A stretch of 22,369 nucleotides of DNA from a virus (IMGVR_UViG_647533160_000004:1-22369); one strand, 5' to 3'. Numbered from the stretch's first letter, positions 1-20,836 are shown. Notes: generated from the letters alone by a model not told the origin. A program made the numbers and translations.

Positions 1-1143
1 CTATGCTGTTTTGATATCTACGATAATCCAGTCTTTACCACGATCATCATTGTATCGGTCGGTCATTTTTCTGGATTTATGGCCTAACAACTTTTGCGTA
101 TCCAGACCCTGTTCCCGATATAACCGTTCTGACAGAGATCGCTGCTCATGAAATGTGGGCGCAGTTCCTTGCTCCCATTTTATGCCACATTTTTCCCGGG
201 CCTTTTTAAAAGCCGTTGTCAGAGTATTTGCAGAAACCTGGTCTCCTCTGTTTGCTTGAGAGGTAGTGTGACGGTAATGGACCAGATATTTACTAACAAC
301 AGCATCCCTGCACTGAGATATAACTTCACGAAGGGTAATATTCAGAGCATCGCATTTCAGGTTAAGCGGAATAGCAAGTTTTGAACCGGTTTTTTCCTGA
401 GTAATGTGCAACATGTCGTCCCATATATCAGAGAATTTCAAATTGCAGATTTCGCCTAAACGTTGTCCAGTAACAAGAGCAAGTAGCATGCCGCATTTTA
501 AATAGGGCTGCCGTCTGCTTACGCTTTCAAATATTGCCTGCCATTCGGGCAGTGACAATCTTTGGCGGTTTACTCGATTTCGCGGTTGTTTTGTTGCCTG
601 CGCTGGGTTAAATCCTGGCGGAACATGTCCTGCGTGTTGTGCTTCTTTGAAGACGTCGATCAACACCATTCTCACGACTTGCGCCATCCTGTTATGACCT
701 TCAGCCTTTACAGCATCAATTATTTCGGCAATATCAAGTGCGGTAATATCCTTGAGGTGTTGCATTCCACAATGCTCACGGAAAAGACGAATGGGTTTGC
801 CTTTTTGCCGATAGGAGTTGGGTCTTAGTTCATTATGTTGCAGCCTGTCCTCCTGGATAGAAATATATTTATCAAGCCATTCTGTCACCGTAATGTCTGA
901 GCGCCTGCCTTTCATTCTTTCCAGACGCTCATTGACGCTTAATATTTGTCGGGTACGTTGTTCAGCAATAATGGTATTTGCTTCAGTAGCAACTTGTTTT
1001 GCTTCATTCTCATCAGTTCCTAAGCTATGAAAACGACCGGATAGTGGATGTTTGTATTGCAAATATACCTTTCCGGTTCGCTTATCTAATTTGCAATATA
1101 AATTGGGTAAAGAGATTTTGTGAGATCGGGGTCTAGCAGCCAT
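1..1143 (-). CDS. int: Tyrosine integrase, lambda Int family (380 aa); window begins at its stop codon
   Basis: Full-length ORF. C-terminal region resembles the lambda Int catalytic region (compare ...HELRSLSARLY... and ...LLGHKS...RY.DDRG..W in lambda Int, from memory); N-terminal Arg/Lys-rich arm-binding-like segment. Lies at the prophage end next to xis. Confidence 0.9.
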   Translation of the reverse strand: MAARPRSHKISLPNLYCKLDKRTGKVYLQYKHPLSGRFHSLGTDENEAKQVATEANTIIAEQRTRQILSVNERLERMKGRRSDITVTEWLDKYISIQEDRLQHNELRPNSYRQKGKPIRLFREHCGMQHLKDITALDIAEIIDAVKAEGHNRMAQVVRMVLIDVFKEAQHAGHVPPGFNPAQATKQPRNRVNRQRLSLPEWQAIFESVSRRQPYLKCGMLLALVTGQRLGEICNLKFSDIWDDMLHITQEKTGSKLAIPLNLKCDALNITLREVISQCRDAVVSKYLVHYRHTTSQANRGDQVSANTLTTAFKKAREKCGIKWEQGTAPTFHEQRSLSERLYREQGLDTQKLLGHKSRKMTDRYNDDRGKDWIIVDIKTA

Positions 1144-1369
1144 CAGCGATTATCCGTTGGAGTTTTGGGTTTGCGTTTATTGGGAGTTGCGGTTCTGCAA
1201 GCGTTCCTACAAAACGGGAATTTCGGTCAATCATCCAGTAGCGACCAACTTTTATAGCGGGTGGGGCCATCATTTTCCCTTGCGCGTATTTTTTCAGAAC
1301 TCGCTCACTTGGTGCTAAGTCCCCAAATTCTTCTTTAGCCCAGTCCTGTAAAGTGATTAGTCGAGACAT
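1133..1369 (-). CDS. xis: Excisionase-like protein (78 aa)
   Basis: Small ORF immediately upstream of int, overlapping it by 11 nt, same strand; basic, with some resemblance to lambda Xis. Position and size are typical of xis. Confidence 0.65.
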   Translation of the reverse strand: MSRLITLQDWAKEEFGDLAPSERVLKKYAQGKMMAPPAIKVGRYWMIDRNSRFVGTLAEPQLPINANPKLQRIIADGC

Positions 1370-1508
1370 TTGTCCTCCTCTTAGCTGCTGAGGGAGTTTG
1401 TGACCGATATATCTGACATGATATTAAGCTCATGGCAGGTACATCTCTTGACTGGTCATAGAGATAAATTTAATGCTGAGAAATGCAGTATTGAATTTAT
1501 CAATTTTT

Positions 1509-1748
1509 CTATTTCCTGCGTATGGCACGTAACTTCTTAATGTGTTCTGCCGTTTCGATCTCTTCTGCTATCCGATCTGCATCAGCTTTATTCACAGGTT
1601 CAAAGTCATGATTAAAGCGGAACATGCTGGCGATACATGTTCTGCCTTTTCGGATGTAGTGAACTTTGTTGTGGGTAGAACGCAGGATTTTGCAGGGAGT
1701 GCCGTGGTGGTCGACGTACCAGGTGTTAGGAAAAATGATTCTGAACAT
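1509..1748 (-). CDS. Hypothetical early-left operon protein (79 aa)
   Basis: ORF co-oriented with the int-xis-exo operon; no recognisable motif. The overlapping plus-strand ORF 1542..1775 is judged less likely. Confidence 0.35.
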   Translation of the reverse strand: MFRIIFPNTWYVDHHGTPCKILRSTHNKVHYIRKGRTCIASMFRFNHDFEPVNKADADRIAEEIETAEHIKKLRAIRRK

Positions 1749-1795
1749 TTTTACACCTCAGTTGGACGATGTTGAAATTTGCTGCTTTGAGGCCA

Positions 1796-2014
1796 TCACA
1801 GTCCCCATTGTTTGTTCTTAAGTTCGATCTCCTCCTGGCAACTTGCACAAGTCCGACAACCCTGAACGGCCAGGCGTCTTCGTTCATCTATCGGATCGCC
1901 ACACTCACAACAATGAGTGGCAGATATAGCCTGGTGGTTCAGGCGGCGCATTTTTATTGCTGTGTTGCGCTGTAATTCTTCAATTTCTGATGCTGAATCA
2001 ATGATGTCTGCCAT
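1796..2014 (-). CDS. TraR/DksA-family C4 zinc-finger protein (72 aa)
   Basis: Two Cys pairs, CCECGDPI...(20 aa)...CRTCASC, matching the CxxC-(17-20)-CxxC spacing of TraR/DksA-type zinc fingers common in phage early regions. Confidence 0.6.
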   Translation of the reverse strand: MADIIDSASEIEELQRNTAIKMRRLNHQAISATHCCECGDPIDERRRLAVQGCRTCASCQEEIELKNKQWGL

Positions 2015-2065
2015 CTTTCATTAATCCCTGAATTGTTGGTTAATACGCTTGAGGGTGAATGCGAA

Positions 2066-2091
2066 TAATAAAAAAGGAGCCTGTAGCTCCA
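2066..2091 (-). terminator. Possible intrinsic terminator inside the leftward operon (tL-like)
   Basis: On the minus strand: GGAGC-tacag-GCTCC hairpin followed by TTTTTTATTATT (plus-strand ggagcctgtagctcc preceded by aataataaaaaa). The stem is only 5 bp. Confidence 0.35.
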
Positions 2092-2112
2092 TGATGATTT
2101 TGTTTTTCATGT

Positions 2113-2328
2113 TCACCGTTCCTTAAAGACGCCGTTTAACATGCCGATCGCCAGGCTTAAATGAGTCGGTGTGAATCCCATCAGCGTTACCGTTTCGCGG
2201 TGCTTCTTCAGTACGCTACGGCAAATGTCATCGACGTTTTTATCCGGAAACTGCTGTCTGGCTTTTTTGATTTCATAATTAGCCTGACGGGCAATACTGC
2301 GAAGGGCGTTTTCTTGCTGAGGTGTCAT
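2113..2328 (-). CDS. Lambda orf61-like small protein (72 aa from the MTPQQ start; track ORF extends to 2394)
   Basis: Protein MTPQQENALRSIARQANYEIKK... co-oriented in the xis-exo interval where lambda carries orf61/orf63/orf60a. Start choice between ATG at 2328 and the upstream start at 2394 is unresolved. Confidence 0.5.
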   Translation of the reverse strand: MTPQQENALRSIARQANYEIKKARQQFPDKNVDDICRSVLKKHRETVTLMGFTPTHLSLAIGMLNGVFKER

Positions 2329-2404
2329 TGAACAAGTCCCATGTCGGCAAGCATAAGCACACAGAATATGAAGCCCGCTGCCAGAAAAATGCATTCAGTG
2401 GTTG

Positions 2405-2596
2405 TCATACCTGGTCTCTCTCATCTGCTTCTGCTTTCGCCACCATCATTTCCAGCTTTTGTGAAAGGGATGTGGCTAACGTATGAAATTCTTCGTCTGT
2501 TTCTACTGGTATTGGCACAAACCTGACTCCAATTTGAGCGAGGCTATGTGCCATCTCGATACTCGTTCTTAACTCAACGGGAGATGCTTTGTGCAT
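2405..2596 (-). CDS. Lambda orf63-like protein (63 aa)
   Basis: Sequence [23 protein letters not shown]... agrees in length and, as I recall it, in sequence with lambda Orf63; sits just upstream of exo. Confidence 0.6.
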   Translation of the reverse strand: MHKASPVELRTSIEMAHSLAQIGVRFVPIPVETDEEFHTLATSLSQKLEMMVAKAEADERDQV

Positions 2597-2757
2597 ACAG
2601 CCCCTCGTTTATTATTTATCTCCTCAGCCAGCCGCTGGGCTTTCAGTGGATTTTGGATAACAGAAAGGCCGGGAAATACCCAGCCTCGCTTTGTAACGGA
2701 GTAGACGAAAGTGATCGCGCCTACCCGGATATTATCGTGAGGATGCGTCATCGCCAT
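2569..2757 (-). CDS. Lambda orf60a-like protein (62 aa)
   Basis: Sequence [26 protein letters not shown]... immediately downstream of exo on the same strand, matching the lambda orf60a position. Confidence 0.55.
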
Positions 2758-3428
2758 TGCTCCCCAAATACAAAACCAATTTCAGCCAGTGCCTCGTCCA
2801 TTTTTTCGATGAACTCCGGCACCATCTCGTCAAAACTCGCCATGTACTTTTCATCCCGCTCAACCACGACATAATGCAGTCCTTCACGCTTCATACGCGG
2901 GTCATAGTTGGCAAAGTACCAGGCATCTTTTCGCGTCACCCACATGCTGTACTGCACCTGGGCCATGTAAGCCGACTTTATGGCCTCGAAACCACCGAGC
3001 CGGAACTTCATGAAATCCCGGGAGGTAAACGGGCATTTCAGCTCAAGGCCATTGCCGTCACTGCATAAACCATCGGGAGAGCAGGCGGTGCGCATACTTT
3101 CGTCGCGATAGATGATCGGGGATTCAGTAACATTCACGCCGGAAGTGAATTCAAACAGGGTTCTGGCGTCGTTCTCGTACTGTTTTCCCCAGGCCAGCGC
3201 CTTAGCATTAACTTCCGGAGCCACACCGGTGCAAACCTCAGCCAGCAGGGTGTGGAAGTAGGACATTTTCATGTCAGGCCACTTCTTTCCTGAGCGGGGC
3301 TTTGCTATCACGTTGTGAACTTCTGAAGCGGTGATGACGCCGAGCCGTAATTTGTGCCATGCATCATCCCCCTGTTCGACAGCTCTCACGTCGATCCCGG
3401 TACGCTGCAGGATAATGTCCGGTGTCAT
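2748..3428 (-). CDS. exo: Lambda-type 5'-3' exonuclease (Red alpha), 226 aa
   Basis: Translation [40 protein letters not shown]... matches lambda Exo as I remember it in length and sequence; overlaps bet by 4 nt. Confidence 0.95.
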
Positions 3429-4210
3429 GCTGCCACCTTCTGCTCAGTGGCTTTCTGTTTCAGGAATCCAAGAGCTTTCACTGCTTCGGCTTGTGTCAGT
3501 TCTGACGATGCGCGAATGTCGCGGCGAAATATCTGGGAACAGAGCGGCAATAAGTCGTCATCCCATGTTTTATCCAGGGCGATCAGCAGAGTGTTAATCT
3601 CCTGCATGGTTTCATCGTTAACCGGAGTGATGTCGCGTTCTGGCTGACGTTCTGCAGTGTATGCAGTATTTTCGACAATGCGCTCGGCTTCATCCTTGTC
3701 ATAGATACCAGCAAATCCGAAGGCCAGACGGGCACACTGAATCATGGCTTTATGCCGTAACATCCGTTTGGGATGCGACTGCCACGGCCCCGTAATTTCT
3801 CTGCCTTCGCGGGTTTTGAATGGTTCGCGGCGGCATTCATCCATCCACTCGGTAACGCAGATCGGATGATTACGGTCCTTGCGGTAAATCCGGCATGTAC
3901 AGGATTCATTGTCCTGCTCAAAGTCCATGCCATCAAACTGCTGGTTTTCATTGATGATGCGGGACCAGCCATCAACGCCCACCACCGGAACGATGCCATT
4001 CTGCTTATCAGGAAAGGCGTAAATTTCTTTCGTCCACGGATTAAGGCCGTACTGGTTGGCAACGATCAACAATGCGATGAACTGCGCATCGCTGGCATCA
4101 CCTTTAAATGCCGTCTGGCGAAGAGTGGTGATCAGTTCCTGTGGGTCGACAGAATCCATGCCGACACGTTCAGCCAGCTTCCCTGCCAGCGTTGCGAGTG
4201 CTGTACTCAT
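3425..4210 (-). CDS. bet: Lambda-type single-strand annealing protein (Red beta), 261 aa
   Basis: Translation [66 protein letters not shown]... matches lambda Bet in length and sequence; gam-bet-exo order is conserved. Confidence 0.95.
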
Positions 4211-4215
4211 CCGTT

Positions 4216-4512
4216 TTATACCTCTGAATCAATATCAACCTGGTGGTGAGCAATTGTTTCAACCATGTACCGGATGTGTTCTGCCATGCGCTCCTGAAAC
4301 TCAACATCGTCATCAAACGCACGGGTAATGGCTTTTTTGCTGGCCCCGTGGCGTTGCAAATGATCGATGCAGAGTGATTCAAACAGGTGCTGAGGAAGAC
4401 CTTTTTCCATGTCGTCTGCCAGTTCTGCCTCTTTCTCTTCACGGGCGATCTGCTGGTAGTGACGCGCCCAGCTCTGAGCCTCAAGACGATCCTGAATGTA
4501 ATAAGCGTTCAT
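4216..4512 (-). CDS. gam: Gam, RecBCD inhibitor (98-aa form)
   Basis: Translation [60 protein letters not shown]... matches the short form of lambda Gam; directly upstream of bet. Confidence 0.9.
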
Positions 4513-4588
4513 GGCTGAACTCCTGATAATGGCTGTGAAAATAGCGCCCGCGAAATGCCAGGCTGATTAGGAAAACAGGAAAGGGGGG

Positions 4589-4795
4589 TTAGTGATTCAG
4601 GCCGTTACCGCGTCCGTCGAGAAAAACTTCTACGAGCAAATCACGGGTATAAGTGCGCTCGATGCCGCGATGCAGATAAAGCCGTCCGCGTAAATTAGCT
4701 GATGCAGTCCAGGTACCATCTTTGTGTTTGACCAGCATTCCTGGCATGACCGCGCCGCGATTAACGGTCTGCGTTCCGTAATGTTGATGAACCAT
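4589..4795 (-). CDS. Hypothetical protein in the kil position (68 aa from internal ATG; track ORF extends to 4879)
   Basis: ATG at 4795 is preceded on the minus strand by AGGAG with a 5-nt spacer; it is the first gene of the leftward operon, directly upstream of gam. The Kil assignment is positional only. Confidence 0.35.
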   Translation of the reverse strand: MVHQHYGTQTVNRGAVMPGMLVKHKDGTWTASANLRGRLYLHRGIERTYTRDLLVEVFLDGRGNGLNH

Positions 4796-5069
4796 AAAAA
4801 CTCCTGCCCGTAAGCTGGGCTGCTGAACATATAGAGACTTCTGCGCGTATTCAGGCGGTGGATGGCCGCCGGTTGCCATAACTAAGCCGCCTCGTTGAAG
4901 CGACTAAGGTATGAAATGTTGAGTTGATTTCAGCTGGTCACACCGACGTTCACGCGTCCGTTTCACCCCTCGCACTCCCCGAAGCCTGCTGAAATTCAAA
5001 CTGCGGATCTAAGCGGTCATCGCAACGGTGAATCAGGTAGTTGCCGTATCGTTGTGTTGTTGCGACATG

Positions 5070-5190
5070 GTGATAATAGCTATTGCTATTGGCTGCATCA
5101 ATACTTGTTGCTATTGATTGATGTGTTTTGATATTAACTGTTTGATAGCAAAAAGAATTAATTTTGTGACTTGCATCGCATAGCGATAAC
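5070..5190. promoter_or_regulatory. Left operator/promoter region (oL/pL-like) with repeated TTGCTAT half-sites
   Basis: Perfect 10-bp palindrome AATAGCTATT (5075..5084), TTGCTATTG copies at 5083..5091 and 5108..5116, inverted ATAGCAA at 5145..5151, and ATCGC-ata-GCGAT inverted repeat at 5175..5187. The same TTGCTATT motif recurs in the cI-cro intergenic region. Confidence 0.45.
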
Positions 5191-5240
5191 TGAAGGGAGG
5201 ATGTGGTGGTTTTTCGAACGGTTTGTGTGATGAGGGGACA

Positions 5241-5266
5241 AAAGAAAACCCGGCACGGTGGCCGGG
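5241..5266 (-). terminator. Rho-independent terminator ending the cI-cargo transcription unit
   Basis: Minus strand CCCGGC-caccgt-GCCGGG hairpin followed by TTTTCTTTTG, starting 5 nt after the stop codon (5271..5273) of the ASCH gene. Confidence 0.6.
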
Positions 5267-5270
5267 ATTC

Positions 5271-5648
5271 TTACGCAGGTAGGTAAAGATATGATTGTGG
5301 TGGCTTAATATTACTACCTAGAGCAGAGATAGGAATTGGTTCTTTATATCTTTCCACTTCACCAATTTTTATTGCGTAGGCCTTTTCTCTACCTGAATAA
5401 TATGAGTCATAAAATTGCTTAGAAATACCTGCGTGTTTTTCCGTCTTTTTCCAAAGAGATTCCGGTTCGTCACTTAGTATTGATTCAATACGGAATTGAC
5501 CAACAACTTTACCTAATGGCATCGTGGCATAAATAACAACGGTGCTAATTTGCGGATTTTTGAATATACCTTTACGAAACTCGAACCGCTTTGTTCCGTT
5601 CAATATTTTTTCTGCAAACTCAGGCTTAATGGATAATAAAACTTTCAT
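5271..5648 (-). CDS. ASCH-domain protein (PUA-like fold), 125 aa
   Basis: N-terminal MKVLLSIKPEFAEKILNGTKRFEFRKG carries the ASCH signature G-x-K-x-x-E-x-R. AT-rich; overlaps the upstream gene by 23 nt, suggesting translational coupling. Confidence 0.7.
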   Translation of the reverse strand: MKVLLSIKPEFAEKILNGTKRFEFRKGIFKNPQISTVVIYATMPLGKVVGQFRIESILSDEPESLWKKTEKHAGISKQFYDSYYSGREKAYAIKIGEVERYKEPIPISALGSNIKPPQSYLYLPA

Positions 5649-6699
5649 TTATCTTGCCTAACTCGATGATCTTTAAGAACTGCTCATTTGTGAGTTTAAA
5701 GTGACTCCATCGGAATGCACGCGAACCATTTAGCCCCACATGATCTATTAAAATAGCACGATTGGGTCTCTTTGGCAAAGACAGATTGTATGTGAATCTT
5801 ATAATGAAAGGGTATCGACGTTCTTTATAGATTTTTCTGAGTTCATCTTCAGAAAATACGCTAAAACGAATACAATAGTCTACAAAACTATCTTCGCTTA
5901 AAAATTCAGAAATATTTTTTACGCTCTCAACTACACATAATGTACTGGCTACAGAACGATAGCGAGCTGGCCCTTTTTTGTCTCCGGTTCTATAGATGAC
6001 AATGATATCTCCTCTTTTCATTCCCATCACAGAACGCATTCCACATATGTAAATTTTATGAATGCTGTTAGCATGGGATATATCTTTGACAATATCTGGT
6101 GATTCATTTACAAGTTTTGAATCAGGGAATAGTCTAGTGTGATATTCGGGATAAATCGCCAGTAAATATTTGTTGGCCCTTGATGTCATTATTCGAGGGT
6201 AATCTAATAAAATATCACCATAAGGCTCATGCAAAGACCTCGCATATACAAACTCTTTCCCGTTATGTGTTTCTTTTTCACCATGAATGTAAAATCCGTA
6301 CGTTTGGAAAAGTTTTATTAGATGGACGTGTTTGTCGAAAACAGTAACATAAATATCATCAGATTTTGATGAAAATGCATGGTCAAACGCTTTTTTTAGA
6401 AATCGTTGTCCGCGAAGGGTGCCTTTAGATTCAAATTTGAATGTTCCTATCTTTAGATGACGTCCTGGTGGGAGCGCTGGATTAATGTCATTTGCATCAT
6501 CATTTTCTTTTAGATACATAAAACCTTCGATTTTATGCTTGTCATCATAGAGCACATAAGCTGATTCTCCTTCTCTGGCTTTTTTTTCTAACCAAAGAGG
6601 AAACTCTTTATAATCTTTTTTTAAAGAGTCAAAAAATGGGTCATTGTGATCAAAATCAGAGAATTTCTCATATTTTAAAGTATCCATTAAGTTCTCCAT
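5626..6699 (-). CDS. Two-domain cargo protein: N-terminal GNAT-like acetyltransferase region plus C-terminal possible PUA-like region (357 aa; alternative start at 6687)
   Basis: AT-rich ORF directly downstream of cI on the same strand. Residues ~40-160 (...AYVLYDD...KIGTFKFESKGTLRGQRFLKKAFDHAFS...IYVTVFDKHVHLIKLFQTYGFY...) resemble a GNAT fold; domain calls are by eye and unverified. The second ATG has a GGAG Shine-Dalgarno 6 nt upstream. Confidence 0.55.
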   Translation of the reverse strand: MENLMDTLKYEKFSDFDHNDPFFDSLKKDYKEFPLWLEKKAREGESAYVLYDDKHKIEGFMYLKENDDANDINPALPPGRHLKIGTFKFESKGTLRGQRFLKKAFDHAFSSKSDDIYVTVFDKHVHLIKLFQTYGFYIHGEKETHNGKEFVYARSLHEPYGDILLDYPRIMTSRANKYLLAIYPEYHTRLFPDSKLVNESPDIVKDISHANSIHKIYICGMRSVMGMKRGDIIVIYRTGDKKGPARYRSVASTLCVVESVKNISEFLSEDSFVDYCIRFSVFSEDELRKIYKERRYPFIIRFTYNLSLPKRPNRAILIDHVGLNGSRAFRWSHFKLTNEQFLKIIELGKINESFIIH

Positions 6700-6767
6700 T
6701 CTAAAATGAATAATTAAGTTGTTTTACTGAATGAGCACAATGCCCGGTTGATAATTTTTAATTGGTA

Positions 6768-7460
6768 CTATCCATGCTTCCTATACGTCTGCGGCATGCT
6801 CCCAATAACTTTCCCGAAGATAAATACCCGGTTCATCTCATCTTTCTCGATCGGGTCCCACGGTGAGTAGCTTTTGTTATCAGAGATAACCAGCAGCTTA
6901 TCCTTCATCATTTGCAGGCGCTTTACATGGGCTGTGTCGTCGTACAGAAACGCATAGATACCATCACCGTCGAAAGATTTAACCGTGATATCAACGAATA
7001 GAAGATCACCAGGTTCAATCGTTCCTGACATGCTGTCACCGCGTACGTTAATGATGCGGATATTTTCTGCCTTCCTACCATCGAACATGTGACGAGCATC
7101 GTCAAACGAGTACTCAACCGAGCGTAGAACTTCTACAAACTCACGGTTGATGACTCCCGGCCCGGCACTCACTTCTATATCAAGAACGTCAATCTTGAAG
7201 TATTTGGGATGGTTGGCAGTAGGCTTCCCTAATTGTTGACCGTCATTTCTCATCGGGCCTATGCCTGATGAGAGCCACTCTGTTCGAACACCCAATGCAT
7301 TAGCTATTTCAACAATTTTTGTTGAGCCGCGCGCGTTGCCGCTTGTCAGTCTCCAGATTGTGGGTTGAGCTACGCCAGACGCCTTTGCAAGAGCGCCTTG
7401 AGACATTCCAGATTGTTCCATCGCTAGGTTTAAGCGATCAGCAAGAGTTTCTTTTTTCAT
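6768..7460 (-). CDS. cI: CI-like prophage repressor, N-terminal HTH plus C-terminal S24 (LexA-like) autopeptidase domain (231 aa from first ATG; track ORF to 7496 starts at TTG)
   Basis: HTH region ...MSQGALAKASGVAQPTIWRLTSG... and C-terminal ...VRGDSMSGTIEPGDLLFVD...HVKRL... (Ser nucleophile in GDSM, downstream Lys) typical of cleavable lambdoid repressors. Divergent from cro; the TTG extension would overlap the operator palindrome, so the ATG at 7460 is preferred (possibly leaderless). Confidence 0.85.
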   Translation of the reverse strand: MKKETLADRLNLAMEQSGMSQGALAKASGVAQPTIWRLTSGNARGSTKIVEIANALGVRTEWLSSGIGPMRNDGQQLGKPTANHPKYFKIDVLDIEVSAGPGVINREFVEVLRSVEYSFDDARHMFDGRKAENIRIINVRGDSMSGTIEPGDLLFVDITVKSFDGDGIYAFLYDDTAHVKRLQMMKDKLLVISDNKSYSPWDPIEKDEMNRVFIFGKVIGSMPQTYRKHG

Positions 7461-7570
7461 AAGTTTTAATTTATACGCTTGCGTATTGATGGTCAAAACA
7501 CGTTTTGCTATTGTTATGGTTAATACGCATTGCTATTATTTATTCATTGTAATACCAATAGGAATTAATA
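7461..7570. promoter_or_regulatory. Right operator/promoter region (oR, pR/pRM-like) between cI and cro
   Basis: Perfect inverted repeat ATACGC-tt-GCGTAT (7473..7486), related TAATACGCATTGCTATTA (7521..7538), and TTGCTATTG (7504..7515) in the 110-bp divergent intergenic region. Confidence 0.5.
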
Positions 7571-7798
7571 ATGACAAATCAAACCATTCAACTCGCAATC
7601 AGTATTACAGGTAGTCAAAAACGACTGGCAGATCTATGCGGTGTAGCCCAGCCCACTGTTTGGCGTTGGCTACACGGTGGCGGAATTGATGCCCGCTATG
7701 TAATGAAAATTGTCTCAGCCACTGGTGGAAAGATTAAACCAGCAGATATTCGTCCCGACCTCGCACCATTGTTTAACGCGAGTAATTCTGCCGCCTAA
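7571..7798 (+). CDS. cro: Cro-like HTH regulator (75 aa)
   Basis: Small ORF divergent from cI; HTH-like segment ...QKRLADLCGVAQPTVWRWLHGG...; AGGA about 8 nt upstream of the ATG. Confidence 0.75.
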   Translation: MTNQTIQLAISITGSQKRLADLCGVAQPTVWRWLHGGGIDARYVMKIVSATGGKIKPADIRPDLAPLFNASNSAA

Positions 7799-7822
7799 TC
7801 TGCGGCGTTAACTGATAAGGCA

Positions 7823-8368: not shown

Positions 8369-8454
8369 CAGGTTCGGAAATGGCGAAAGCCGGTCTGCGC
8401 GAACAGAACCGACTTTCAGGTGCAAATCGTAACACACTCATTGCGGGAGGAATT

Positions 8455-12202: not shown

Positions 12203-12441
12203 GGGTATGATAATTGTTACCCTCCTTTGGATCTAGTGTTCATTTGACATAAAAACCAATTGATTCATCATAATCAACCCGCCATAATCATGTCATCGGA
12301 GCCTGAACAACTCCGGTGACTTCTGCGCTAAACGGGGACGTTTATGCGCACACACAATCCAAACTCTCTTCTCCCTCCACAGATGCAGAAATGCACCTGC
12401 GATTTTTTGCATCCAGCGTTTGGCCTCTGCGGAGGTGAATC

Positions 12442-12795
<354 letters not shown>

Positions 12796-12871
12796 AGAGG
12801 GAAAAGAAACAACTTACGTATATTCTACGTATTCTTCAGGCGCACCACGCTTACAGGTTTCCAAATCTGGT

Positions 12872-14269
12872 TTGTGGGGTTGTCATAATGGCACTGGCTG
12901 GTTGCCATTAGCTGTTGGGCAAGGAGGTACAGGTGCGACAACAGTAGAAGATGCGCGAAACAACTTAAGTCTTGGCGAAAGTAGCGCAGTTAAATTTAAA
13001 AACCTTACTTTAACCGAAGCGCTCGACGTGACATTAGGACTGCTTACAAAAACAGGACGAGACTGGAACACGCAGCATACTGATAACATTAATAAATTTA
13101 TACCAATTGCAGGCAGTACAAACGGCCCGGCAGGTTCTATGGTTCTTGGCGGCATTCATGTTCAATTTAGTAAAAATTATGCTGTGCAGTTCGGAGGCCG
13201 CAATTCCGGTTTTTGGGGAAGAACAATTGAAAATGGAACGACGCAGGAATGGAAGAAATTACTAACAGTAGACGATCTCAATTCATCTACCGATCTTGCT
13301 GTCAGGTCATTAACCACATCTAACCCGGTAAAATCTGGCGGAGGGCGAATTGATGTCCTTGGAAGCACGTCAGACTATAGCAAAATGGATTGCTTTGTAC
13401 GTGGGTTTGATAGCACCGGTAATTCTCTCGTGTGGGCGTTGGGTTCATCAGTCGGCGTAAGTAAGATGCTATCGCTAAAAAATTTCTTTAGCGGAGCTGA
13501 GATACTGTTAAATGGTAATGACGGCGCGGTTCAACTCAAAACAGGTGCTGTTAACGGGGCTACAGCGCAGACGCTCACTATCAACAAGAATGAGGTTAAC
13601 TCAACCGTTGATTTAACCCTTACAAAGCAATCAGGGACTGGTAATCGTTTTGTTTTACAGAACTCAGGTAATGCAGAACTACCGTTTTCTGTCAGGGGGT
13701 GGGGTTCCAGTACTCGACAAAACGTTTTTGAGGTTGGAACGTCTGCTGCGTATCTGTTTTATGCGCAAAAAACGTCAGCAGGCCAGTTGTTTGATGTAAA
13801 TGGCGCTATTAATTGCACAACGCTGAATCAGTCATCAGACCGCGACCTTAAAGACGATATTCTCGTTATCAGCGACGCGACGAAAGCAATCCGTAAAATG
13901 AACGGATACACCTACACGCTCAAGGAAAACGGGATGCCTTATGCTGGCGTTATTGCACAGGAAGTAATGGAGGCGATACCAGAAGCTGTGGGATCGTTTA
14001 CTCATTATGGTGAAGAGTTGCAAGGTCCGACCGTTGACGGCAACGAGCTACGCGAAGAAACTCGCTATCTTAATGTTGACTACTCCGCCGTGACGGGTTT
14101 ACTTGTTCAGGTCGCCCGTGAAACAGATGATCGCGTTACCGCGCTGGAAGAGGAAAACACAACGCTACGTCAAAATCTGGCAACAGCAGGCACCCGGATC
14201 AGCACTCTGGAAAATCAGGTAAGCGAACTGGTTGCACTTGTCCGGCAGTTAACAGGAAGCGAACATTGA
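12872..14269 (+). CDS. stf: Side tail fibre protein, C-terminal portion with a self-cleaving intramolecular chaperone domain (465 aa; N-terminus lost, TTG start in track)
   Basis: Gly/Thr/Ser/Asn-rich fibre-like sequence (...GQGGTGATTVEDARNNLSLG...). C-terminal domain from 13832 has the chaperone-of-endosialidase pattern SDRDLKDD...GYTYTLKENGMPYAGVIAQEVMEAIPEAV...YLNVDYSAVTGLLVQVARE..., recognised from memory of that family. The frame is open upstream without an ATG. Confidence 0.8.
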   Translation: MWGCHNGTGWLPLAVGQGGTGATTVEDARNNLSLGESSAVKFKNLTLTEALDVTLGLLTKTGRDWNTQHTDNINKFIPIAGSTNGPAGSMVLGGIHVQFSKNYAVQFGGRNSGFWGRTIENGTTQEWKKLLTVDDLNSSTDLAVRSLTTSNPVKSGGGRIDVLGSTSDYSKMDCFVRGFDSTGNSLVWALGSSVGVSKMLSLKNFFSGAEILLNGNDGAVQLKTGAVNGATAQTLTINKNEVNSTVDLTLTKQSGTGNRFVLQNSGNAELPFSVRGWGSSTRQNVFEVGTSAAYLFYAQKTSAGQLFDVNGAINCTTLNQSSDRDLKDDILVISDATKAIRKMNGYTYTLKENGMPYAGVIAQEVMEAIPEAVGSFTHYGEELQGPTVDGNELREETRYLNVDYSAVTGLLVQVARETDDRVTALEEENTTLRQNLATAGTRISTLENQVSELVALVRQLTGSEH

Positions 14270-14308
14270 TATCCTTCAAGCCCTGAAGGAGGCTGTTCCT
14301 GGTACGTT

Positions 14309-14440
14309 CAGACTGTTGCTGAGCTGGAGATCGCAACGGAGGAAGAGAAAGCGTTTCTGGCCGCATGGAAAACATATCGGGTATTGCTGAACCGTGTTGA
14401 TACAGTAAACCCCGTCTGGCCTCCACCTTCGAAGCGATAG
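14309..14440 (+). pseudogene. tfa: Remnant of the 3' end of a tail fibre assembly gene (tfa)
   Basis: Translation ...[40 protein letters not shown]... resembles the lambda Tfa C-terminal motif (...[30 protein letters not shown]...). No start codon or N-terminal part is present. Confidence 0.6.
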
Positions 14441-14744
14441 CCCAGCAACTCCTAAATAGCTGCGCATAATACCGCTACACCTGCCGTTTTACTGACATTT
14501 GGAATATTGCGTGAGGGCAACATATCGAGGGGCAGATATAGCTCGGTCAAATAGAAAAACAGCCCCACTATTTACCATGCAATAGCTGGTCAAAAGGAGA
14601 GCACTATTCCGCTCCGCGTAGTATTTTGTGTTTATAGTGATAACTTAGGTAATGCTTAGTCACTAAGATACTTTGCTATTGGAGAGCGATTTATAATGTG
14701 GGCGCAACAGATTTTTACTATTGCGCCACTTGCTCTTGTGAGTA

Positions 14745-15833
14745 CTATTCGCTATAAGTTAATGTTGGTTTTGAAAGTCTTTTGGATATTGTTTTTCCGA
14801 TATTAATGAATGGAGTTTCAATATATTTATAAATAAAGAATGATAAGAACAAGCTAAGAGCAATAATGAATGAAAACTTAGAGAACCCAGGTTTTTCATA
14901 AAGCGGAATGAAATCCTTAAAATTAATTAAAAATAGCATTACTATCGCATGGGATAAATACAGAGAGTAAGAGATATCACCTAGCTTACTGAGTATTTTA
15001 TTTTCCCTTAATCCGAAGTTAACTTCATAAAGTAAAACTCCCGTAATTATGGAGGCTGCCCACAATCCGAAGTTTAAAGGGCCATGACCAAATCTGAATT
15101 GATAAAAATATGAGCAAACACCAAATGAAACCAAAAGGAATGATATCGCCTTTGCGTTTTTTATATATTTAAATTTTCTGTGTATTATATACAGAAACAT
15201 CCCATAAACGAATTCTAACAGCATGGGTGATGACATTAAGTTTAGAAAGCCAATATGCCAATGACCTGTATCACCAATCGTAAACTTACTTGATAGAGAA
15301 AGGCTGTTGGAAAATTTCAACTGTATGAGAAGTAGCGGGACTATCAATGCAATAACTGATATTAATAATCTGTTTTTATGGCTCAGCGATATTGCAAGCA
15401 TAAAAATGAAATAAAAATAGACTTCAAAGGTTAATGTCCATGCTGGATAAAGCACGTTGTATCCGAAGAATGGCGCTTCTGAATAATAGTCCAGGTGAAG
15501 CAGAAACAATGAACGCAATAATTCACTTTCGGTGAAGACTGGGTTCAATAAAAAGAATAAGATTGTGCAAATGAAAAATACAGGGTAAATCCTGAAAAAA
15601 CGCCTGGTCATAAAGTTAATAGGGGAATTTGTTTCTTTTTTTTGACTCGATAACATTATTATAAATCCACTTATAATAAAAAACAGATCAACCCCAAAAC
15701 CACCACTAATAAACAATAAATCACCTAGATCTTTTTGTGCGTAAACTTCATTTAGGTATTGTTTATTGTGATATGCAACAACGAGTAATGCTGCTACACC
15801 TCGCAAATAGTGAATTGATTTTACCTTCTTCAT
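14745..15833 (-). CDS. Acyltransferase-3 family integral membrane protein (OafA/Oac-like), putative O-antigen/LPS acetyltransferase (362 aa)
   Basis: Very AT-rich, highly hydrophobic ORF with about 10 predicted transmembrane segments and N-terminal ...YLRGVAALLVVAYH...GVDLFFIISGFII... typical of acyltransferase family 3. Confidence 0.8.
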   Translation of the reverse strand: MKKVKSIHYLRGVAALLVVAYHNKQYLNEVYAQKDLGDLLFISGGFGVDLFFIISGFIIMLSSQKKETNSPINFMTRRFFRIYPVFFICTILFFLLNPVFTESELLRSLFLLHLDYYSEAPFFGYNVLYPAWTLTFEVYFYFIFMLAISLSHKNRLLISVIALIVPLLLIQLKFSNSLSLSSKFTIGDTGHWHIGFLNLMSSPMLLEFVYGMFLYIIHRKFKYIKNAKAISFLLVSFGVCSYFYQFRFGHGPLNFGLWAASIITGVLLYEVNFGLRENKILSKLGDISYSLYLSHAIVMLFLINFKDFIPLYEKPGFSKFSFIIALSLFLSFFIYKYIETPFINIGKTISKRLSKPTLTYSE

Positions 15834-16048
15834 TTTTATATAATCACTGTTCCAATTTTTTTTATTTTACAAACAATTCTATCTAGCTCATTAGTACTCA
15901 AAGTCAGATTGGTAGCAACAAAAAAACAAGATATGTGATGACATGGCGCGGGGCTCAGAACCACTCGTGTATTTTCGCCACTGGCTATGACTGGCTGCAC
16001 CTGCAAGATCTGCCATTTGTGTGCCAGTATACCCAAGCTCTGACTTTA

Positions 16049-16548
16049 TGTTTACCAGATCCTCTGGAGTGCCGGGGAGTATAATCGTTGATTAATCGAA
16101 TCTGCAACTATTTCAGAACGACCTAGGTTAAAGTGCGCTCTGCAGTCTCTTATATAAGGTGATACTTTAATTGTCTGGAAACTGGACAGGTTAGGAAGGA
16201 GCAGGAAACATCTTATTATACTTACCGAGTAGCTGCGGGTAAGGGGGGGATTTCCGTAGCCTGACAGGTAACATTGACACGTCAACATCGATGGTTTTTT
16301 TTATTTTTCCATGTGATGGAGCCCTGGTTGAAATGAAGCGTGAACTGATTGATGACTGAACAAAAGTTGGACTGGAAGATGCTCGCGCACAGGGAGGAAT
16401 TGGTGGACGTCGTCCTAAACTTACATCAGAACAATGGGCGCAGGCCGGGCGATTAATTGCATCAAAAGTCCCGCGTCAGAAGGTGGCGATCATCTATGAT
16501 ATTGGTGTATCGACTTTATATAAGAGGTTTCCAGCCAGGATTATATAA
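16049..16548 (+). pseudogene. pin: Decayed serine DNA invertase gene (Pin/Gin/Hin family) with frameshifts and in-frame stops
   Basis: Fragments in shifting frames: ...VWKLDRLGRS..., ...ALVEMKRELIDD(stop)TKVGLEDARAQGGIGGRRPKLTSEQWAQAGRLIASKVPRQKVAIIYDIGVSTLYKRFPA... The C-terminal HTH is intact; the catalytic N-terminal half is disrupted. Confidence 0.7.
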
Positions 16549-16658
16549 AACTGCAGACACGCCGTATGCAAGACGTGCTGCGGTTGGCTGATGCACTTTC
16601 GAGAGTGTATGTATTGAATAATTTCCAACCGTCATTAATTTTATTTATTTTTTGCATG

Positions 16659-16678
16659 AGAGGATTTGAACCTCCGAG
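16659..16678 (-). other. tRNA T-arm-like fragment (GGAGG-TTCAAAT-CCTCT) without acceptor stem or CCA
   Basis: Minus-strand ctcggaGGTTCAAATCCtct matches the T-stem/loop consensus. No complete cloverleaf could be built from the flanking sequence. Confidence 0.25.
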
Positions 16679-16871
16679 CCTCGACACCTTATGACAACGC
16701 GATATTCCCTTGATGACCGCTATGCGCCAAAATAACCAATTGATAAATAAGTTGATTTTAATTAGTTGGAAGCAAGTCAGGTCAAATTCAGCATGCCGCT
16801 CTCTGTATCGGGTAGTTAAATTTTTCTATAACTGATAGTAATATGTTAAAACTCACACAGATAAATTATCA

Positions 16872-18854
16872 TTGCTCAACAAGTATAATGGAGTTCCCGT
16901 GGATACAGCAGAACATGATGGCAAATTTGCTTGGGCTAGTTTTTATGAGGCTTTTGCCAACGCGTTACTGACTTGGCGAAATCGTAGAGATGAATTAGTC
17001 AAAGGTATTCATCTAATTGCCTCAGGTGTGGAAGGAATGTCCCATCTGCAGGACAAATCTATTATGGGAGAGATCTTTCCCTTAAAAGACATTTGTCCGT
17101 TTACTACTATGGGCTTGTTCAATCGTAACTTGACCGATAGCAATCGCAAAATTATTGCTGCCAAGCTAGCGAATTTGTTGGGCGTGAACGAACCGATTCC
17201 TGACTCCTTTGCCGGAATCCCGCTGTTGAATAACCAAAAATCTTGGTTCTTTGGTTATGAAAAGTCACGCGACCCTAATGACATTGAATGCTTGTGGGAA
17301 ATGTTCTCGCAGGCAATGACCTTTGCGGATAACCAGAATACTAACTCTGCAGACTTCACTGCCGCATATGACATTGCTTCTACAGTAATGAATGTCGGTT
17401 GGAATCTCACCATGGGGTTGTACTGGACCCGTCCTTGGTTCTACCCTACTTTAGATAGCCAGTCGCAGTATTACATTCAGACAGTGTTAAACATTAAGAT
17501 CATTAAAAACGGGGCAAAAGGTCGCTGTAGTGGACAAAGTTACCTGAGTCTTATGCGGGCGCTGAACGAGGTCTTTACCCAACCAAACTATCCGGTTCAT
17601 TCTTTCCCAGAACTTTCTTTATCAGCGTGGAATACAGATCTTAGCCAGTCTAAAGATGAGGTGGCAAATAGAACGTGGAAAGCCTCTTTACTGAATAAAA
17701 TTAAGGCGTTATGCCTGAAAAAAAATGGCCCTTATTTCACTGCTTCGGAGTTGGAAGAAAACTACTTGGACGTATTCAAGGTAGAGCATCCTGAGAGCAA
17801 AACAGTTACAAGCTCAATCTACTTTTATCTACAGAAACTATGCAATGATGATGAGTTAAAGTCCCTTGAGTCCGGAAATTATGAATACCTGAATTTTGAG
17901 AAAAACGAATCCCAGACGATAACTGAGGAAACTGTCGAAGAGAGTGCGCCGTTGCCAAAACTCACTCACGTTCCTTATGACATCAGTCATCTGGTGCAGG
18001 ATGGCTGTTTCTTGGAAGAGGCTAAGATCCAACTCACACTTCAGCGCCTGATCGACAAGAAAAACCTGATATTACAAGGACCACCCGGAACTGGAAAAAC
18101 CTGGTTAGCGCGACGTCTGGCGTACTGCTTGATGGGAGAAAAAGCACCTGAGCGTATTAGCGCGGTGCAATTTCACCCGAACCTCTCTTACGAAGACTTT
18201 ATTCGCGGCTGGCGTCCAGGTAAAGAAGGGCAATTGACGCTAATTGATGGACCTTTTGTAAATGCAATCAAAACTGCAGTCAATAATCCTACCTCGAAAT
18301 ATGTGGTGATAATTGAAGAGATTAATCGTGGCAATCCGGCGCAAATCTTCGGTGAAACACTCACGTTGATGGAAGCAGATAAACGCACGCCGACTGAGGC
18401 ATTATCTCTTTCCTATCCTAAAAATGATGATGAAAAAATATACATTCCTGAGAATCTATATATCATCGGTACGATGAATATTGCAGACCGCTCACTCGCA
18501 CTACTTGACCTAGCGCTGCGCCGTCGTTTCGCGTTTATCGATCTAAAGCCAGCTTTTAATGACGCGTGGAGAAACTGGGTAAATTATAATTACGCAATTG
18601 ATTTTGACATGTTAGCATTCATCAAATCTCGACTGACGGTACTTAACGATATGCTGGCAAAAGATGTTACCTTAGGACCACAGTTTTGTATCGGTCACAG
18701 CTATGTCACCCCAGCTATCGGCCAAAAAATCAACGATGCCCAGGCTTGGTATGAACAAGTCGTTGATACAGAGATCTGCCCTTTGCTCGCCGAATATTGG
18801 TTCGATGCTCCAAATAAAGTCGATGAAGCCAGAAAAGTGTTATTAGCAAAATGA
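16872..18854 (+). CDS. McrB-like AAA+ GTPase with a long (~390 aa) unassigned N-terminal region (660 aa; alternative GTG start at 16899)
   Basis: C-terminal module has Walker A LQGPPGTGKTW, Walker B VVIIEEINRG and the McrB-type motif IGTMNIADRS. The N-terminal ~390 aa show no motif I can assign. GGAG lies 5 nt upstream of the GTG at 16899. Confidence 0.85.
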   Translation: MLNKYNGVPVDTAEHDGKFAWASFYEAFANALLTWRNRRDELVKGIHLIASGVEGMSHLQDKSIMGEIFPLKDICPFTTMGLFNRNLTDSNRKIIAAKLANLLGVNEPIPDSFAGIPLLNNQKSWFFGYEKSRDPNDIECLWEMFSQAMTFADNQNTNSADFTAAYDIASTVMNVGWNLTMGLYWTRPWFYPTLDSQSQYYIQTVLNIKIIKNGAKGRCSGQSYLSLMRALNEVFTQPNYPVHSFPELSLSAWNTDLSQSKDEVANRTWKASLLNKIKALCLKKNGPYFTASELEENYLDVFKVEHPESKTVTSSIYFYLQKLCNDDELKSLESGNYEYLNFEKNESQTITEETVEESAPLPKLTHVPYDISHLVQDGCFLEEAKIQLTLQRLIDKKNLILQGPPGTGKTWLARRLAYCLMGEKAPERISAVQFHPNLSYEDFIRGWRPGKEGQLTLIDGPFVNAIKTAVNNPTSKYVVIIEEINRGNPAQIFGETLTLMEADKRTPTEALSLSYPKNDDEKIYIPENLYIIGTMNIADRSLALLDLALRRRFAFIDLKPAFNDAWRNWVNYNYAIDFDMLAFIKSRLTVLNDMLAKDVTLGPQFCIGHSYVTPAIGQKINDAQAWYEQVVDTEICPLLAEYWFDAPNKVDEARKVLLAK

Positions 18855-19972
18855 CGACAATAACCGGGAGTGAGCAACATACAGCATCACGTATTCCCAT
18901 GCGAAATATCTGGATGCTGATGCTGTACGCTTCAGATCTGTTTCGTCAGTTAGGGCGCAATCAGATCGCAGTAGAAGATAACCCAGCAGAAATCCCCGAC
19001 CTGGTGGCGACAATCCTCCTTCATGAGATTACGCTGCGCCGACGTCGCAATTTAAATATGGGATACCAAACTTGTCATGCGGCCCTGAACCGGGTGAGAG
19101 GGCGCATTGACATACTGTATACTGCCAGTCATCAACTACTGGAACGGGGACAGGTTGCCTGCCATTTTCAAGACATAACCCTCAACACCCCCCGAAATCG
19201 CTATGTTCGCTGTGCGTTAGAACGTCTGGCCTCAATCATAGTGAAACCGTCTTTGGCGGCAGATTGCCATTTTATGGCAATATCACTTCGCCGTGAGGGG
19301 ATAAATGGAGGATATCCTGCCCCCCACGAATTACCCTCAGTGTGGCGTTTTGGACGCCATGATGCCGCAGATAAACCGATGGTCGATGCCGCACGATTAG
19401 CTTTTGAACTGCTGATGCCGACCGAAGATCAAGGCCAATATCTTTTACCTGCGCCCTCAAATAACCTTTACTGGATGAGAAGACTATTTGAAAAAGGTAT
19501 CGCTGGCTTATATCGTGTACACCTTGCCAAAACAACTTGGCAGGTCTCTGCAGGGAAAGAGCTGAAATGGGCGTTGAGCGATCAAAGTGCAGGTAGTGCA
19601 GAGATTTTCCCGACAATGAAGTCAGACATTATTCTGGAACACAAGACTGCCCAGCGGCGTATTATTATCGATACCAAATTTAATTCGATTCTGACAAAGG
19701 GTTGGCATCGGGAGCAATCACTACGTAATGGCTATATTTATCAGCTATATACCTACCTTAGAACACAGGAGAACAAGACGGATCCGCTTTCGCTCAATGC
19801 CGCTGGTCTTCTACTTCATCCAGCTGTTGGCTATATGCTTAATGAGTATGTTGTCACTCAGGGACATAAGATCCATTTTGCTACAGTAGATATGACGGTA
19901 GATGCTAAAGCAATTAAAAAACAATTGCTGGCAATAGCCCATGATTGTGCAGGAGTCGCGGTTGATGACTAA
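18851..19972 (+). CDS. McrC-like endonuclease subunit (PD-(D/E)xK), 373 aa
   Basis: Start overlaps the McrB-like stop (ATGA, 18851..18854). C-terminal ...KSDIILEHK...RRIIIDTKF... fits a PD-(D/E)xK nuclease core; size and pairing are as in McrBC systems. Confidence 0.8.
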   Translation: MTTITGSEQHTASRIPMRNIWMLMLYASDLFRQLGRNQIAVEDNPAEIPDLVATILLHEITLRRRRNLNMGYQTCHAALNRVRGRIDILYTASHQLLERGQVACHFQDITLNTPRNRYVRCALERLASIIVKPSLAADCHFMAISLRREGINGGYPAPHELPSVWRFGRHDAADKPMVDAARLAFELLMPTEDQGQYLLPAPSNNLYWMRRLFEKGIAGLYRVHLAKTTWQVSAGKELKWALSDQSAGSAEIFPTMKSDIILEHKTAQRRIIIDTKFNSILTKGWHREQSLRNGYIYQLYTYLRTQENKTDPLSLNAAGLLLHPAVGYMLNEYVVTQGHKIHFATVDMTVDAKAIKKQLLAIAHDCAGVAVDD

Positions 19973-20451
19973 CCATCCTATAAGGCACTGGCTGTAATAT
20001 AATCAATAGTTTCAATTAAGTAGCTGTTATCCGTGCTTAGTCATCATATGACGCACCACGGTCTAATTTTCCTGCTCATACATTGATATATCCTTGTCAA
20101 GTCCGAAAAGTCGCAGTCCACTATTAGGTATACCGATTGCCAGCACCAAAAGCTTCTTTGTGATTATTATATCGGGGAATGCCTATTTTTTAGTGACAAT
20201 ATCAGATAGCAATTAATAAGCGGTGCCGGTAATGGATGTTATGTTTAATGTATAGACACAGCCATCATAAACTAAACGTCTGTTGTTCGCTCATAACCGA
20301 CATTTATCTCAGTTATGGAAGATAATTATGTATGCAGATAATGGGGCAGACAGTCGTGGAGTAAACAAGGTTTTGCACTGCTTGGCGGCATCGTTATCTT
20401 ATTTTTAATTATGTGCCTCTTAACATAAGTTGGGACAAAACAGAGACACAT

Positions 20452-20482
20452 AAGGTCTCACAAAGGTCTGCAAGGCCTCACA
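20452..20482. repeat. Three tandem about 10-bp direct repeats (AAGGTCTCACA / AAGGTCTGCA / AAGGCCTCACA), candidate integrase arm-type sites
   Basis: Contiguous direct repeats in the AT-rich non-coding stretch about 200 bp inside the prophage from the icd-fragment junction. Confidence 0.3.
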
Positions 20483-20674
20483 TGTATTGAGATGTTAATA
20501 AAATGTAGACTTGTAATTTGGATATAAATGGTAGAGAAAACCTTTCCCCAAAATAAAAACGAACGTCAATGAAATCAAACGGTTGAATAAAGTTGATTTT
20601 GGCTAATAAAAAAACAATAAAATAATTTTTATCATTAAATATCAATGACTTGAACTTAATGTTTTTATATACTG

Positions 20675-20836
20675 TTACGCCATATGGGCTGGACTGAAGC
20701 CGCAGACTTGATTGTTAAAGGTATGGAAGGCGCAATCAATGCGAAGACCGTAACCTATGACTTCGAACGTCTGATGGAAGGTGCTAAACTGCTGAAATGC
20801 AGCGAGTTTGGTGATGCGATCATCAAGAACATGTAA
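20675..20836 (+). pseudogene. icdC: Displaced 3' fragment of isocitrate dehydrogenase gene (icd', last about 53 codons), marking the right prophage junction
   Basis: In-frame translation ...[53 protein letters not shown](stop) matches the Icd C-terminus as I recall it. No start codon; the frame has a stop just upstream at 20657..20659. Confidence 0.85.

Follow-up and report, generated by a model that had tools for sequence, protein, structure and literature searches.

The DNA stretch IMGVR_UViG_647533160_000004:1-22369 (hereafter the window, meaning the whole 22,369 bp analyzed) very probably carries a defective lambdoid prophage of the Bievrevirus (4A7/4C10) lineage, integrated at icd and trimmed by one internal deletion. 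Phage 4A7 (Bievrevirus, NC_049946) is a complete 49-kb phage with its own icd fragment beside int. Window positions 1 to 10345, from int to ren, align with 4A7 28778 to 39121 at 98.8% nucleotide identity in blastn, colinear and gap-free over 10.3 kb, and two further segments match the same phage: 12270 to 12725 (the region upstream of ybcN plus its start; 93.9%) and 20418 to 20889 (the attP left arm plus the icd copy; 94.5%). The assignment to Bievrevirus applies to this surviving early arm, with the genus-defining late half deleted and the cargo different. A single deletion, running from inside ybcN to inside stf, would have taken out the remainder of the nin region together with Q, the lysis genes, cos and terminase, and the head and tail genes. 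What remains is, in order, attL-int-xis, Red, the kil-like gene, pL, PDC-M11AB, the cI-like gene, the cro- and cII-like genes, O/ori, P, ren, nin-slot cargo, the deletion joint, stf′, tfa′, an acyltransferase gene, pin′, McrBC, and attR.

Several hallmarks of a lambdoid phage are present. The int and xis genes lie beside an attachment site whose core is duplicated at both ends, O and P form a replication module with iterons inside O, and a divergent cI/cro-cII region with putative repeated operators appears to provide immunity. An N antiterminator gene downstream of pL and the Q, lysis, cos, terminase, head, and tail set were not found. An earlier note on this DNA had described an icd-integrated, defective mosaic carrying lambda-type modules. 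Nucleotide alignment to lambda, e14, and an icd-site relative mapped the module boundaries, and the integration site, the Red and O/P/ren alignments, and the loss of late genes bear this description out. The further suggestion of recent modular exchange in the prophage did not hold, as the complete phage 4A7 has the same lambda joints within its matching int-to-ren arm. Because these joints are present in a circulating, viable phage, the mosaic is a trait of the lineage, inherited by the prophage.

Integration at the 3′ end of icd

Over its full length, the window matches the chromosome of Escherichia coli VCSW5 (NZ_CP082355.1, 2737302 to 2759670, reverse strand; megablast, 100.0% with 3 mismatches), and the chromosome of the sister isolate VCSW7 also matches. 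Among the 5,426 complete E. coli genomes searched, none besides VCSW5 and VCSW7 contains at least 80% of the window. In the VCSW5 locus, taken with 12 kb of flank around the window (L001), the gene order is rluE, intact icd, int, xis, the element, an icd pseudogene, iraM, ymgL, ycgX, and bluR, which is the chromosomal position held by e14 in K-12. Intact icd ends 113 nucleotides (nt) left of the window, and attL likewise lies just outside the window on that side. The element starts ~277 nt left of the window and ends at 20672 by the e14 convention, with the att repeat continuing to 20889.

Integration at the 3′ end of icd, with an int-xis pair at the left junction, had been proposed from the window, and the wider locus confirms both. 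A 217-bp direct repeat (4 mismatches), defined by aligning attL, attR, the 4A7 attP region, and K-12 icdC, joins attL (L001 11724 to 11940) and attR (window 20673 to 20889), covering ~165 nt at the end of icd and ~53 nt beyond it. Phage sequence adjoins both copies on the inner side, with the 4A7 attP left arm (window 20418 to 20672) left of the attR repeat and sequence running into int right of the attL repeat. Three copies of the decamer TTCCCCAAAA lie between the attL repeat and int, and the attR P arm has one (at 20544). In 46 kb, 5 copies were counted versus 0.15 expected; these decamers fit putative arm-type Int sites. In the proposed mechanism, a lambda-type tyrosine integrase would have inserted the phage at the 3′ end of icd. 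At attL, icd would then end in phage-supplied sequence, and the 3′ end that the bacterial gene originally had would have been moved to attR as icd′. The same design, in which the phage brings a new icd 3′ end and the bacterial one becomes icd′, has been described for e14 (PMC6379469), and icd is a well-known prophage site (PMC10111431) and the attachment site of phage 21 (PMC12803456).

The icd repeats of attL and attR have several variants in common at which the 4A7 attP copy and K-12 icdC both differ from them, which suggests either gene conversion between the two copies or capture of the phage copy from a similar icd allele. As a separate observation, the chromosomal flank at 20670 to 22369 (icd′, iraM, ymgL, and ycgX) is just 94.3% identical to K-12. 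This value is lower than expected for E. coli core genes; thus, the region adjoining attR appears to be variable itself.

Int and Xis are intact, as are the two att sites. Int is of the type found at the icd site (that of phage 21 and e14), with protein identities of 98.9% to 4A7 Int, 59.7% to e14 IntE, and 34.5% to lambda Int. Phage 21 uses the icd attachment site, and phage 21 Int was considered as a name for the integrase, for which a cluster look-up gave generic names only. The int-xis pair itself is found in 1,611 to 1,679 of the 5,426 genomes (~30%).

The shared site, with the same icd/icd′ duplication, a pin remnant, and a type IV restriction function adjoining attR, could point to a variant of the K-12 cryptic prophage e14, a reading that we consider very unlikely. 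A blastn search against the K-12 e14 region found only the pin remnant (window 16157 to 16560, 75% nucleotide identity to e14 pinE) and the icd repeat (84%), and membership in e14 was rejected on this result. Moreover, Int diverges as given above and Xis is 36% identical, e14 is without Red or O/P genes, and the repressor and the cro- and cII-like proteins are weakly or not similar to those of e14.

Early modules and the immunity region

In the element read as a trimmed 4A7-type prophage, the left arm contains a lambda-type Red module. Window 1819 to 4595 is 97.6% identical at the nucleotide level to lambda (NC_001416) 30418 to 33193 (blastn), and these window positions bound the lambda homology. 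Exo, Bet, and Gam are full length and in operon order, in line with the earlier description of the Red genes as lambda-like and complete. Intact Red genes close to those of lambda are often found in wild E. coli, with possible effects on recombineering and genome stability.

The replication module had likewise been described as essentially lambda-like, which holds for the C-terminal half of O, P, and ren but not for the N-terminal half of O and the iterons. Lambda nucleotide homology starts at 8918, the last base of the last iteron; from there, window 8918 to 10357 aligns with lambda 39119 to 40558 at 93.5% identity without gaps (blastn), with values of 93.4% for the C-terminal half of O, 94.7% for P, and 90.3% for ren. 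Neither the N-terminal half of O nor the iterons showed nucleotide similarity to lambda, the iterons being TTACCYGAATCAGGTAA here versus ATCCCTCAAAACGAGGGA in lambda. At the protein level, O is nearly identical to its lambda counterpart at residues 197 to 339, and its N-terminal, origin-binding part shows only distant similarity. O is a hybrid of a non-lambda origin-binding N-terminal half, which together with the iterons represents a specificity other than that of lambda, and a lambda-type, P-interacting C-terminal half. In lambdoid phages, the iterons covary with the N-terminal domain of O, whose C-terminal domain corresponds to the type of P.

The immunity region is unrelated to that of lambda; a different immunity region had been proposed. 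The cI-like repressor is 24% identical and the cro-like protein 26% identical to the lambda proteins, and the protein in the cII position had no match to lambda cII. The repressor translation shows an Ala-Gly site (EVSAGPG), the GDSMSG serine, and the VKRL lysine. The operator-like repeat AATAnnnnTTGCTATTG is found at 7497 and 7521 (oR position) and at 5075 and 5100 (oL position). Promoter-like hexamers lie at the oL and oR positions in the expected orientations, including a promoter-like site at 5101 to 5073 (minus strand).

Between the putative pL and the kil-type gene, no N-like antiterminator was detected, with no open reading frame (ORF) longer than 32 amino acids (aa) in 4880 to 5270 and no tblastn match to lambda N. 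The kil-type protein had no BLASTP match to lambda Kil or CIII. Rfam returned no credible known RNA (gathering threshold for the whole window; E ≤ 1 for 4400 to 8500), and with respect to an HK022-like put antiterminator RNA, the pL and pR leaders share just 7- to 8-nt chance matches. The viable phage 4A7 has the same layout, with no N-type antiterminator gene after pL.

Late-gene loss, the right arm, and predicted behavior

Late genes were sought by tblastn with 33 lambda proteins and 11 proteins from the DLP12-type late region of the E94 sister prophage (NZ_CP119740.1), which is defective and lies at the same site. Just three matches were retrieved from the window, to ybcN′, the side tail fiber′, and a 33-residue stretch of tfa. 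No match in the window was found for N, cIII, nin, Q, holin, endolysin, spanin, terminase, portal, capsid, or tail-shaft proteins, nor was lambda cosN found in it. Because Q and the lysis, cos/terminase, head, and tail genes are absent, the prophage is defective. The earlier note had all Q, lysis, head, and tail genes missing; this is correct for Q, lysis, head, and tail shaft, but stf′ and tfa′ fragments remain.

The deletion joint fuses ybcN′ to the side tail fiber′. On the ybcN side, homology to 4A7 and E94 stops at 12725, and the fiber remnant is 99.6% identical to E94 fiber residues 605 to 1101 (tblastn, 12776 to 14266). No source for the 50-nt filler between these edges was found in the window, E94, 4A7, lambda, K-12, or other E. 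coli genomes. The joint is present in 2/5,426 genomes, namely those of VCSW5 and VCSW7, which are two related soil isolates. The deletion in E94 differs, with terminase through lom lost, and in the simplest reading a full-length ancestor type would have been eroded independently in VCSW5/VCSW7 and in E94. With the joint in two isolates and an alternative deletion in a sister prophage, the element provides a cleanly dated example of prophage erosion.

An element without structural genes that still has both att sites, int/xis, a replication module, and a repressor could also be a phage satellite (phage-inducible chromosomal island [PICI]-like) or another mobilizable element packaged by a helper phage. 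This explanation is extremely unlikely. The window has no cos site, small terminase gene, or capsid-redirecting genes, and a PICI- or P4-like satellite was rejected for the lack of cos, terminase, and capsid genes. Its content is that of a truncated full-size phage, 98.8% identical to 4A7; the joint is confined to two related genomes and so does not mark a propagating lineage; and the pseudogene debris (ybcN′, stf′, tfa′, and pin′) indicates decay.

For the defective prophage, a reduced cycle can be predicted; attL, attR, int, xis, the repressor gene, cro, the cII-like gene, O, ori, P, exo, bet, and gam are all intact. The LexA-type repressor would keep pL and pR off, and upon SOS damage, RecA-stimulated autocleavage of the repressor would lead to derepression. 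Int and Xis would then excise the element and restore intact icd, and theta replication would proceed from the O/P origin, with Red and the Kil-type inhibitor expressed. Induction should yield neither particles nor lysis. In the repressed state, the element would act mainly as a carrier of lysogen-expressed cargo and defense genes, and the host probably retains it for the repressor-linked PDC-M11 pair and the other cargo genes.

Several points weigh against this account of one phage trimmed by one deletion and still able to excise and replicate. Excision, replication, repression, and Red activity are predicted solely from intact ORFs and sites. With neither an N-like ORF downstream of pL nor a known RNA element found, the element shows no evident means of extending transcription from pL into Red, int, and xis, although this is equally true of the viable phage 4A7. 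Given the 50-nt filler, a simple homologous event does not account for the deletion, which could have arisen in several steps. Finally, no sequenced phage in the collection gave a near-identical match to the right arm (12776 to 20417); we infer its origin in one phage genome with the left arm from its being colinear with lambda, 4A7, and E94.

The filler and the unmatched right arm could instead reflect a composite, in which a 4A7-like prophage integrated in tandem or recombined with an older icd-site remnant (stf′-tfa′-acyltransferase-pin′-McrBC-attR), with 12726 to 12775 as the fusion between the two elements. The att repeat regenerates the integration target, making tandem lysogeny possible, and the right arm, from the tail fiber to beyond attR, is 99.1% identical to that of E94, while the left arms differ (88 to 96% identical, with different cargo). 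We nevertheless regard a composite as improbable. From lom through stf, tfa, and cargo to the attP left arm, the order follows that of lambda and 4A7, the P arm beside attR (20418 to 20672) is itself 4A7-like, and the window contains neither a third att copy nor a second integrase. Mosaic left arms on a shared right arm are normal in lambdoid phages. A single prophage of the 4A7 lineage, trimmed internally, is the reading followed for the features in Table 1.

Table 1. Features of the icd-site prophage, in window coordinates
Feature	Position	Strand	Basis
int, tyrosine integrase, 380 aa	1-1143	-	Pfam Arm-DNA-bind_1 and Phage_integrase; lambda-Int architecture with arm-binding domain
xis, excisionase	1133-1369	-	Pfam Exc; 100% identical to 4A7 Xis
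DUF4222, TraR/DksA zinc-finger protein, orf61-like gene	1509-2328	-	PGAP, Pfam
Red module (orf63 and orf60a homologues, exo, bet, gam)	2405-4512	-	Nucleotide and protein comparison with lambda
exo, 226 aa	2748-3428	-	98.7% protein identity to lambda
bet, 261 aa	3425-4210	-	99.6% protein identity to lambda
gam, 98-aa form	4216-4512	-	98.0% protein identity to lambda
kil-type cell-division inhibitor	4589-4795	-	PHROG 294, 1e-37
Putative oL/pL (two operator-like repeats, promoter-like site)	5073-5116	-	Repeat and hexamer search
PDC-M11B, ASCH protein	5271-5648	-	PADLOC 7e-52; Pfam ASCH
PDC-M11A, 353 aa	5626-6687	-	PADLOC 2e-133; PHROG 'acetyltransferase'-like N terminus
cI-like prophage repressor, helix-turn-helix and S24 autocleavage domain	6768-7460	-	Pfam HTH_3, Peptidase_S24
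Putative oR operators, divergent pRM-like and pR-like promoters	7497-7537	.	Repeat and promoter-like hexamers
cro-like, YdaS family	7571-7798	+	Pfam YdaS_toxin, 1e-14
cII-like, YdaT family	7829-8368	+	Pfam YdaT_toxin, 8e-30; PHROG 163 'CII-like transcriptional activator'
O, hybrid initiator	8365-9384	+	67% identical to lambda O overall
ori, five 17- to 18-bp palindromic iterons (TTACCYGAATCAGGTAA), then A-rich tract	8806-8950	+	Iterons at 8806-8918
P, lambda-type	9381-10082	+	97% protein identity to lambda
ren, lambda-type	10079-10366	+	88% protein identity to lambda
88-aa ORF, nin slot	10431-10697	+	Low-GC segment
472-aa uncharacterized protein, nin slot	10749-12167	-	No Pfam/NCBIfam family
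Truncated ybcN, first 96/151 codons	12442-12726	+	PGAP pseudogene; tblastn with E94 YbcN (12442-12729)
50-nt filler at joint	12726-12775	.	Between homology edges 12725 and 12776
Side tail fiber remnant, C-terminal 497/1101 codons	12776-14269	+	PGAP pseudogene; Pfam Peptidase_S74 chaperone domain
tfa fragment	~14306-14440	+	PGAP pseudogene; 79.6% nucleotide identity to lambda tfa at 14307-14404
Acyl_transf_3 membrane acyltransferase (moron)	14745-15833	-	Pfam 2.6e-34
pin-type serine invertase pseudogene	16101-16548	+	PGAP: frameshifted, truncated
McrBC-type pair: McrB-like GTPase, 651 aa, then McrC (18899-19972)	16899-19972	+	Pfam AAA_5, McrBC
attR	20418-20889	+	Phage P arm 20418-20672 plus 217-bp icd-homology repeat 20673-20889
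icd′ pseudogene (displaced icd 3′ fragment)	20669-20836	+	PGAP annotation

Cargo genes and related prophages

Within this trimmed prophage, ~40% of the sequence is cargo (PDC-M11, the 472-aa protein, the acyltransferase, the dead pin, and the McrBC variant); the interval from 10.3 to 20.7 kb, which is mostly cargo and defense genes, had been overlooked in the earlier note. The pair matching the PADLOC candidate system PDC-M11 fills the slot of lambda rexAB, between the repressor and oL/pL, and is followed by a terminator-like hairpin (5266 to 5249); it is probably cotranscribed with the repressor in the lysogen. PDC-M11B is related to ZmASCH (PDB entry 5GUS, 8e-16), and for the function of PDC-M11A, a PDB sequence search gave only GNAT matches at E = 0.15. 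Because an acetyltransferase-like protein is combined here with an ASCH protein, the mechanism may be RNA directed.

The nin-slot segment has a GC content of 36 to 39% and occurs in 24/5,426 genomes. Its 472-aa protein was not placed in any Pfam or NCBIfam family; the sole PHROGs match covers 57 residues and is to a family of unknown function, and PADLOC gave a weak match to HEC-07 (1e-9). Its family consists of ~470-aa hypothetical proteins from Enterobacterales, Pseudomonas, and Caulobacter, and homologues elsewhere stand alone at the edge of P4-like islands (integrase plus DUF927 primase) or lie among HipA/Fic/BrnA-type genes. An AlphaFold2 model (mean confidence score, pLDDT, of 82.7) has a helix-grip domain at its N terminus and a small domain at its C terminus, along with an alpha/beta domain and a long coiled coil; searches with it retrieved generic domain-level fold matches only and no whole-protein structural match. 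From genomic context, a defense role for this protein would be our guess.

The right-arm cargo is complete in 35 genomes. Here, the acyltransferase gene, whose product possibly modifies surface polysaccharide, sits on the opposite strand between the tfa stub and the dead pin. It appears to have replaced the alternative tail-fiber segment of a former Pin-invertible region. The McrBC-type pair has the tandem arrangement of an AAA+ GTPase and a nuclease. McrC is canonical and scored above the NCBIfam equivalog cutoff (348.5 versus 338), while the McrB-like protein scored below its cutoff (265.6 versus 637), with only residues 369 to 645 matching McrB (residues 369 to 643 match the McrB structure 6hz4, 4e-77). 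The N-terminal ~365 aa are unrelated to McrB and do not correspond to the 5-methylcytosine-binding domain of EcoKMcrB.

The rexAB slot, the nin slot, and the b region hold other genes in the relatives 4A7 and E94, and the differences from E94 mark cargo hotspots, which here contain candidate defense genes. A broader proposal, possible but doubtful in our view, is that the surviving half of the phage serves as an SOS-inducible, excisable, self-replicating carrier of anti-phage cargo. This cargo would comprise PDC-M11AB, the McrBC variant with its new N-terminal domain, and most notably the 472-aa protein, which could represent a new single-gene defense system.

Among the relatives compared, 4A7 and 4C10 (NC_049946 and LR595861) have in common with the element Int, Xis, the attP design, Red, PDC-M11, the repressor/cro/cII set, the hybrid O, and P. 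Unlike the element, they contain a DLP12-type Q/lysis region, lambda-type head and tail genes, and insertion sequence and sitABCD cargo. The slot cargo of 4A7 consists of QacE-like, YbcK, esterase, and sitABCD genes, differing from that of the element in both the nin slot and the b region. Lysogens of 4A7 and 4C10 were found experimentally to be inducible by DNA-damaging bacteriocins (bioRxiv 10.64898/2026.05.26.727859).

The E94 sister prophage has an int-xis pair 99.4% identical to that of the element and keeps ybcN, ninE, ybcO, rusA, Q (quuD), ompC, the lysis genes, nohD, a terminase stub, a lom stub, and a full-length tail fiber gene. Its cargo at 4168 to 5232 and 12115 to 14543 of the E94 locus (L005) includes a DGQHR-domain gene between TraR and orf60a, a broken MT-A70 methyltransferase gene, and, in the nin slot, a phosphoribosyltransferase (PRTase)-like and NADAR pair. 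Other small genes lie beside its repressor.

Lambda resembles the element in gene order, the Red region, the C-terminal half of O with P and ren, and the tfa fragment; it differs in att site, Int, immunity, and the N-terminal half of O with its iterons, and the element is without the N, cIII, rexAB, nin, and late genes. The K-12 prophage e14 shares the icd site, an icd′ at attR followed by iraM-ycgX, the defective state, and a pin invertase, and in both elements a type IV restriction gene adjoins attR (mcrA in e14, McrBC-like here). In contrast, e14 has no early genes in common with the element, Red and O/P among them, and keeps baseplate and tail-fiber genes, lit, and mcrA. Taken together, the element is a case of textbook lambdoid mosaicism and prophage decay at a classical site, of a kind already well known. 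By literature description, the icd-site lambdoid prophages NC-SV of E. coli NC101 and 50icd/61icd occupy the same locus with a lambda-like layout and are intact or inducible (PMC12803456; PMC10111431).

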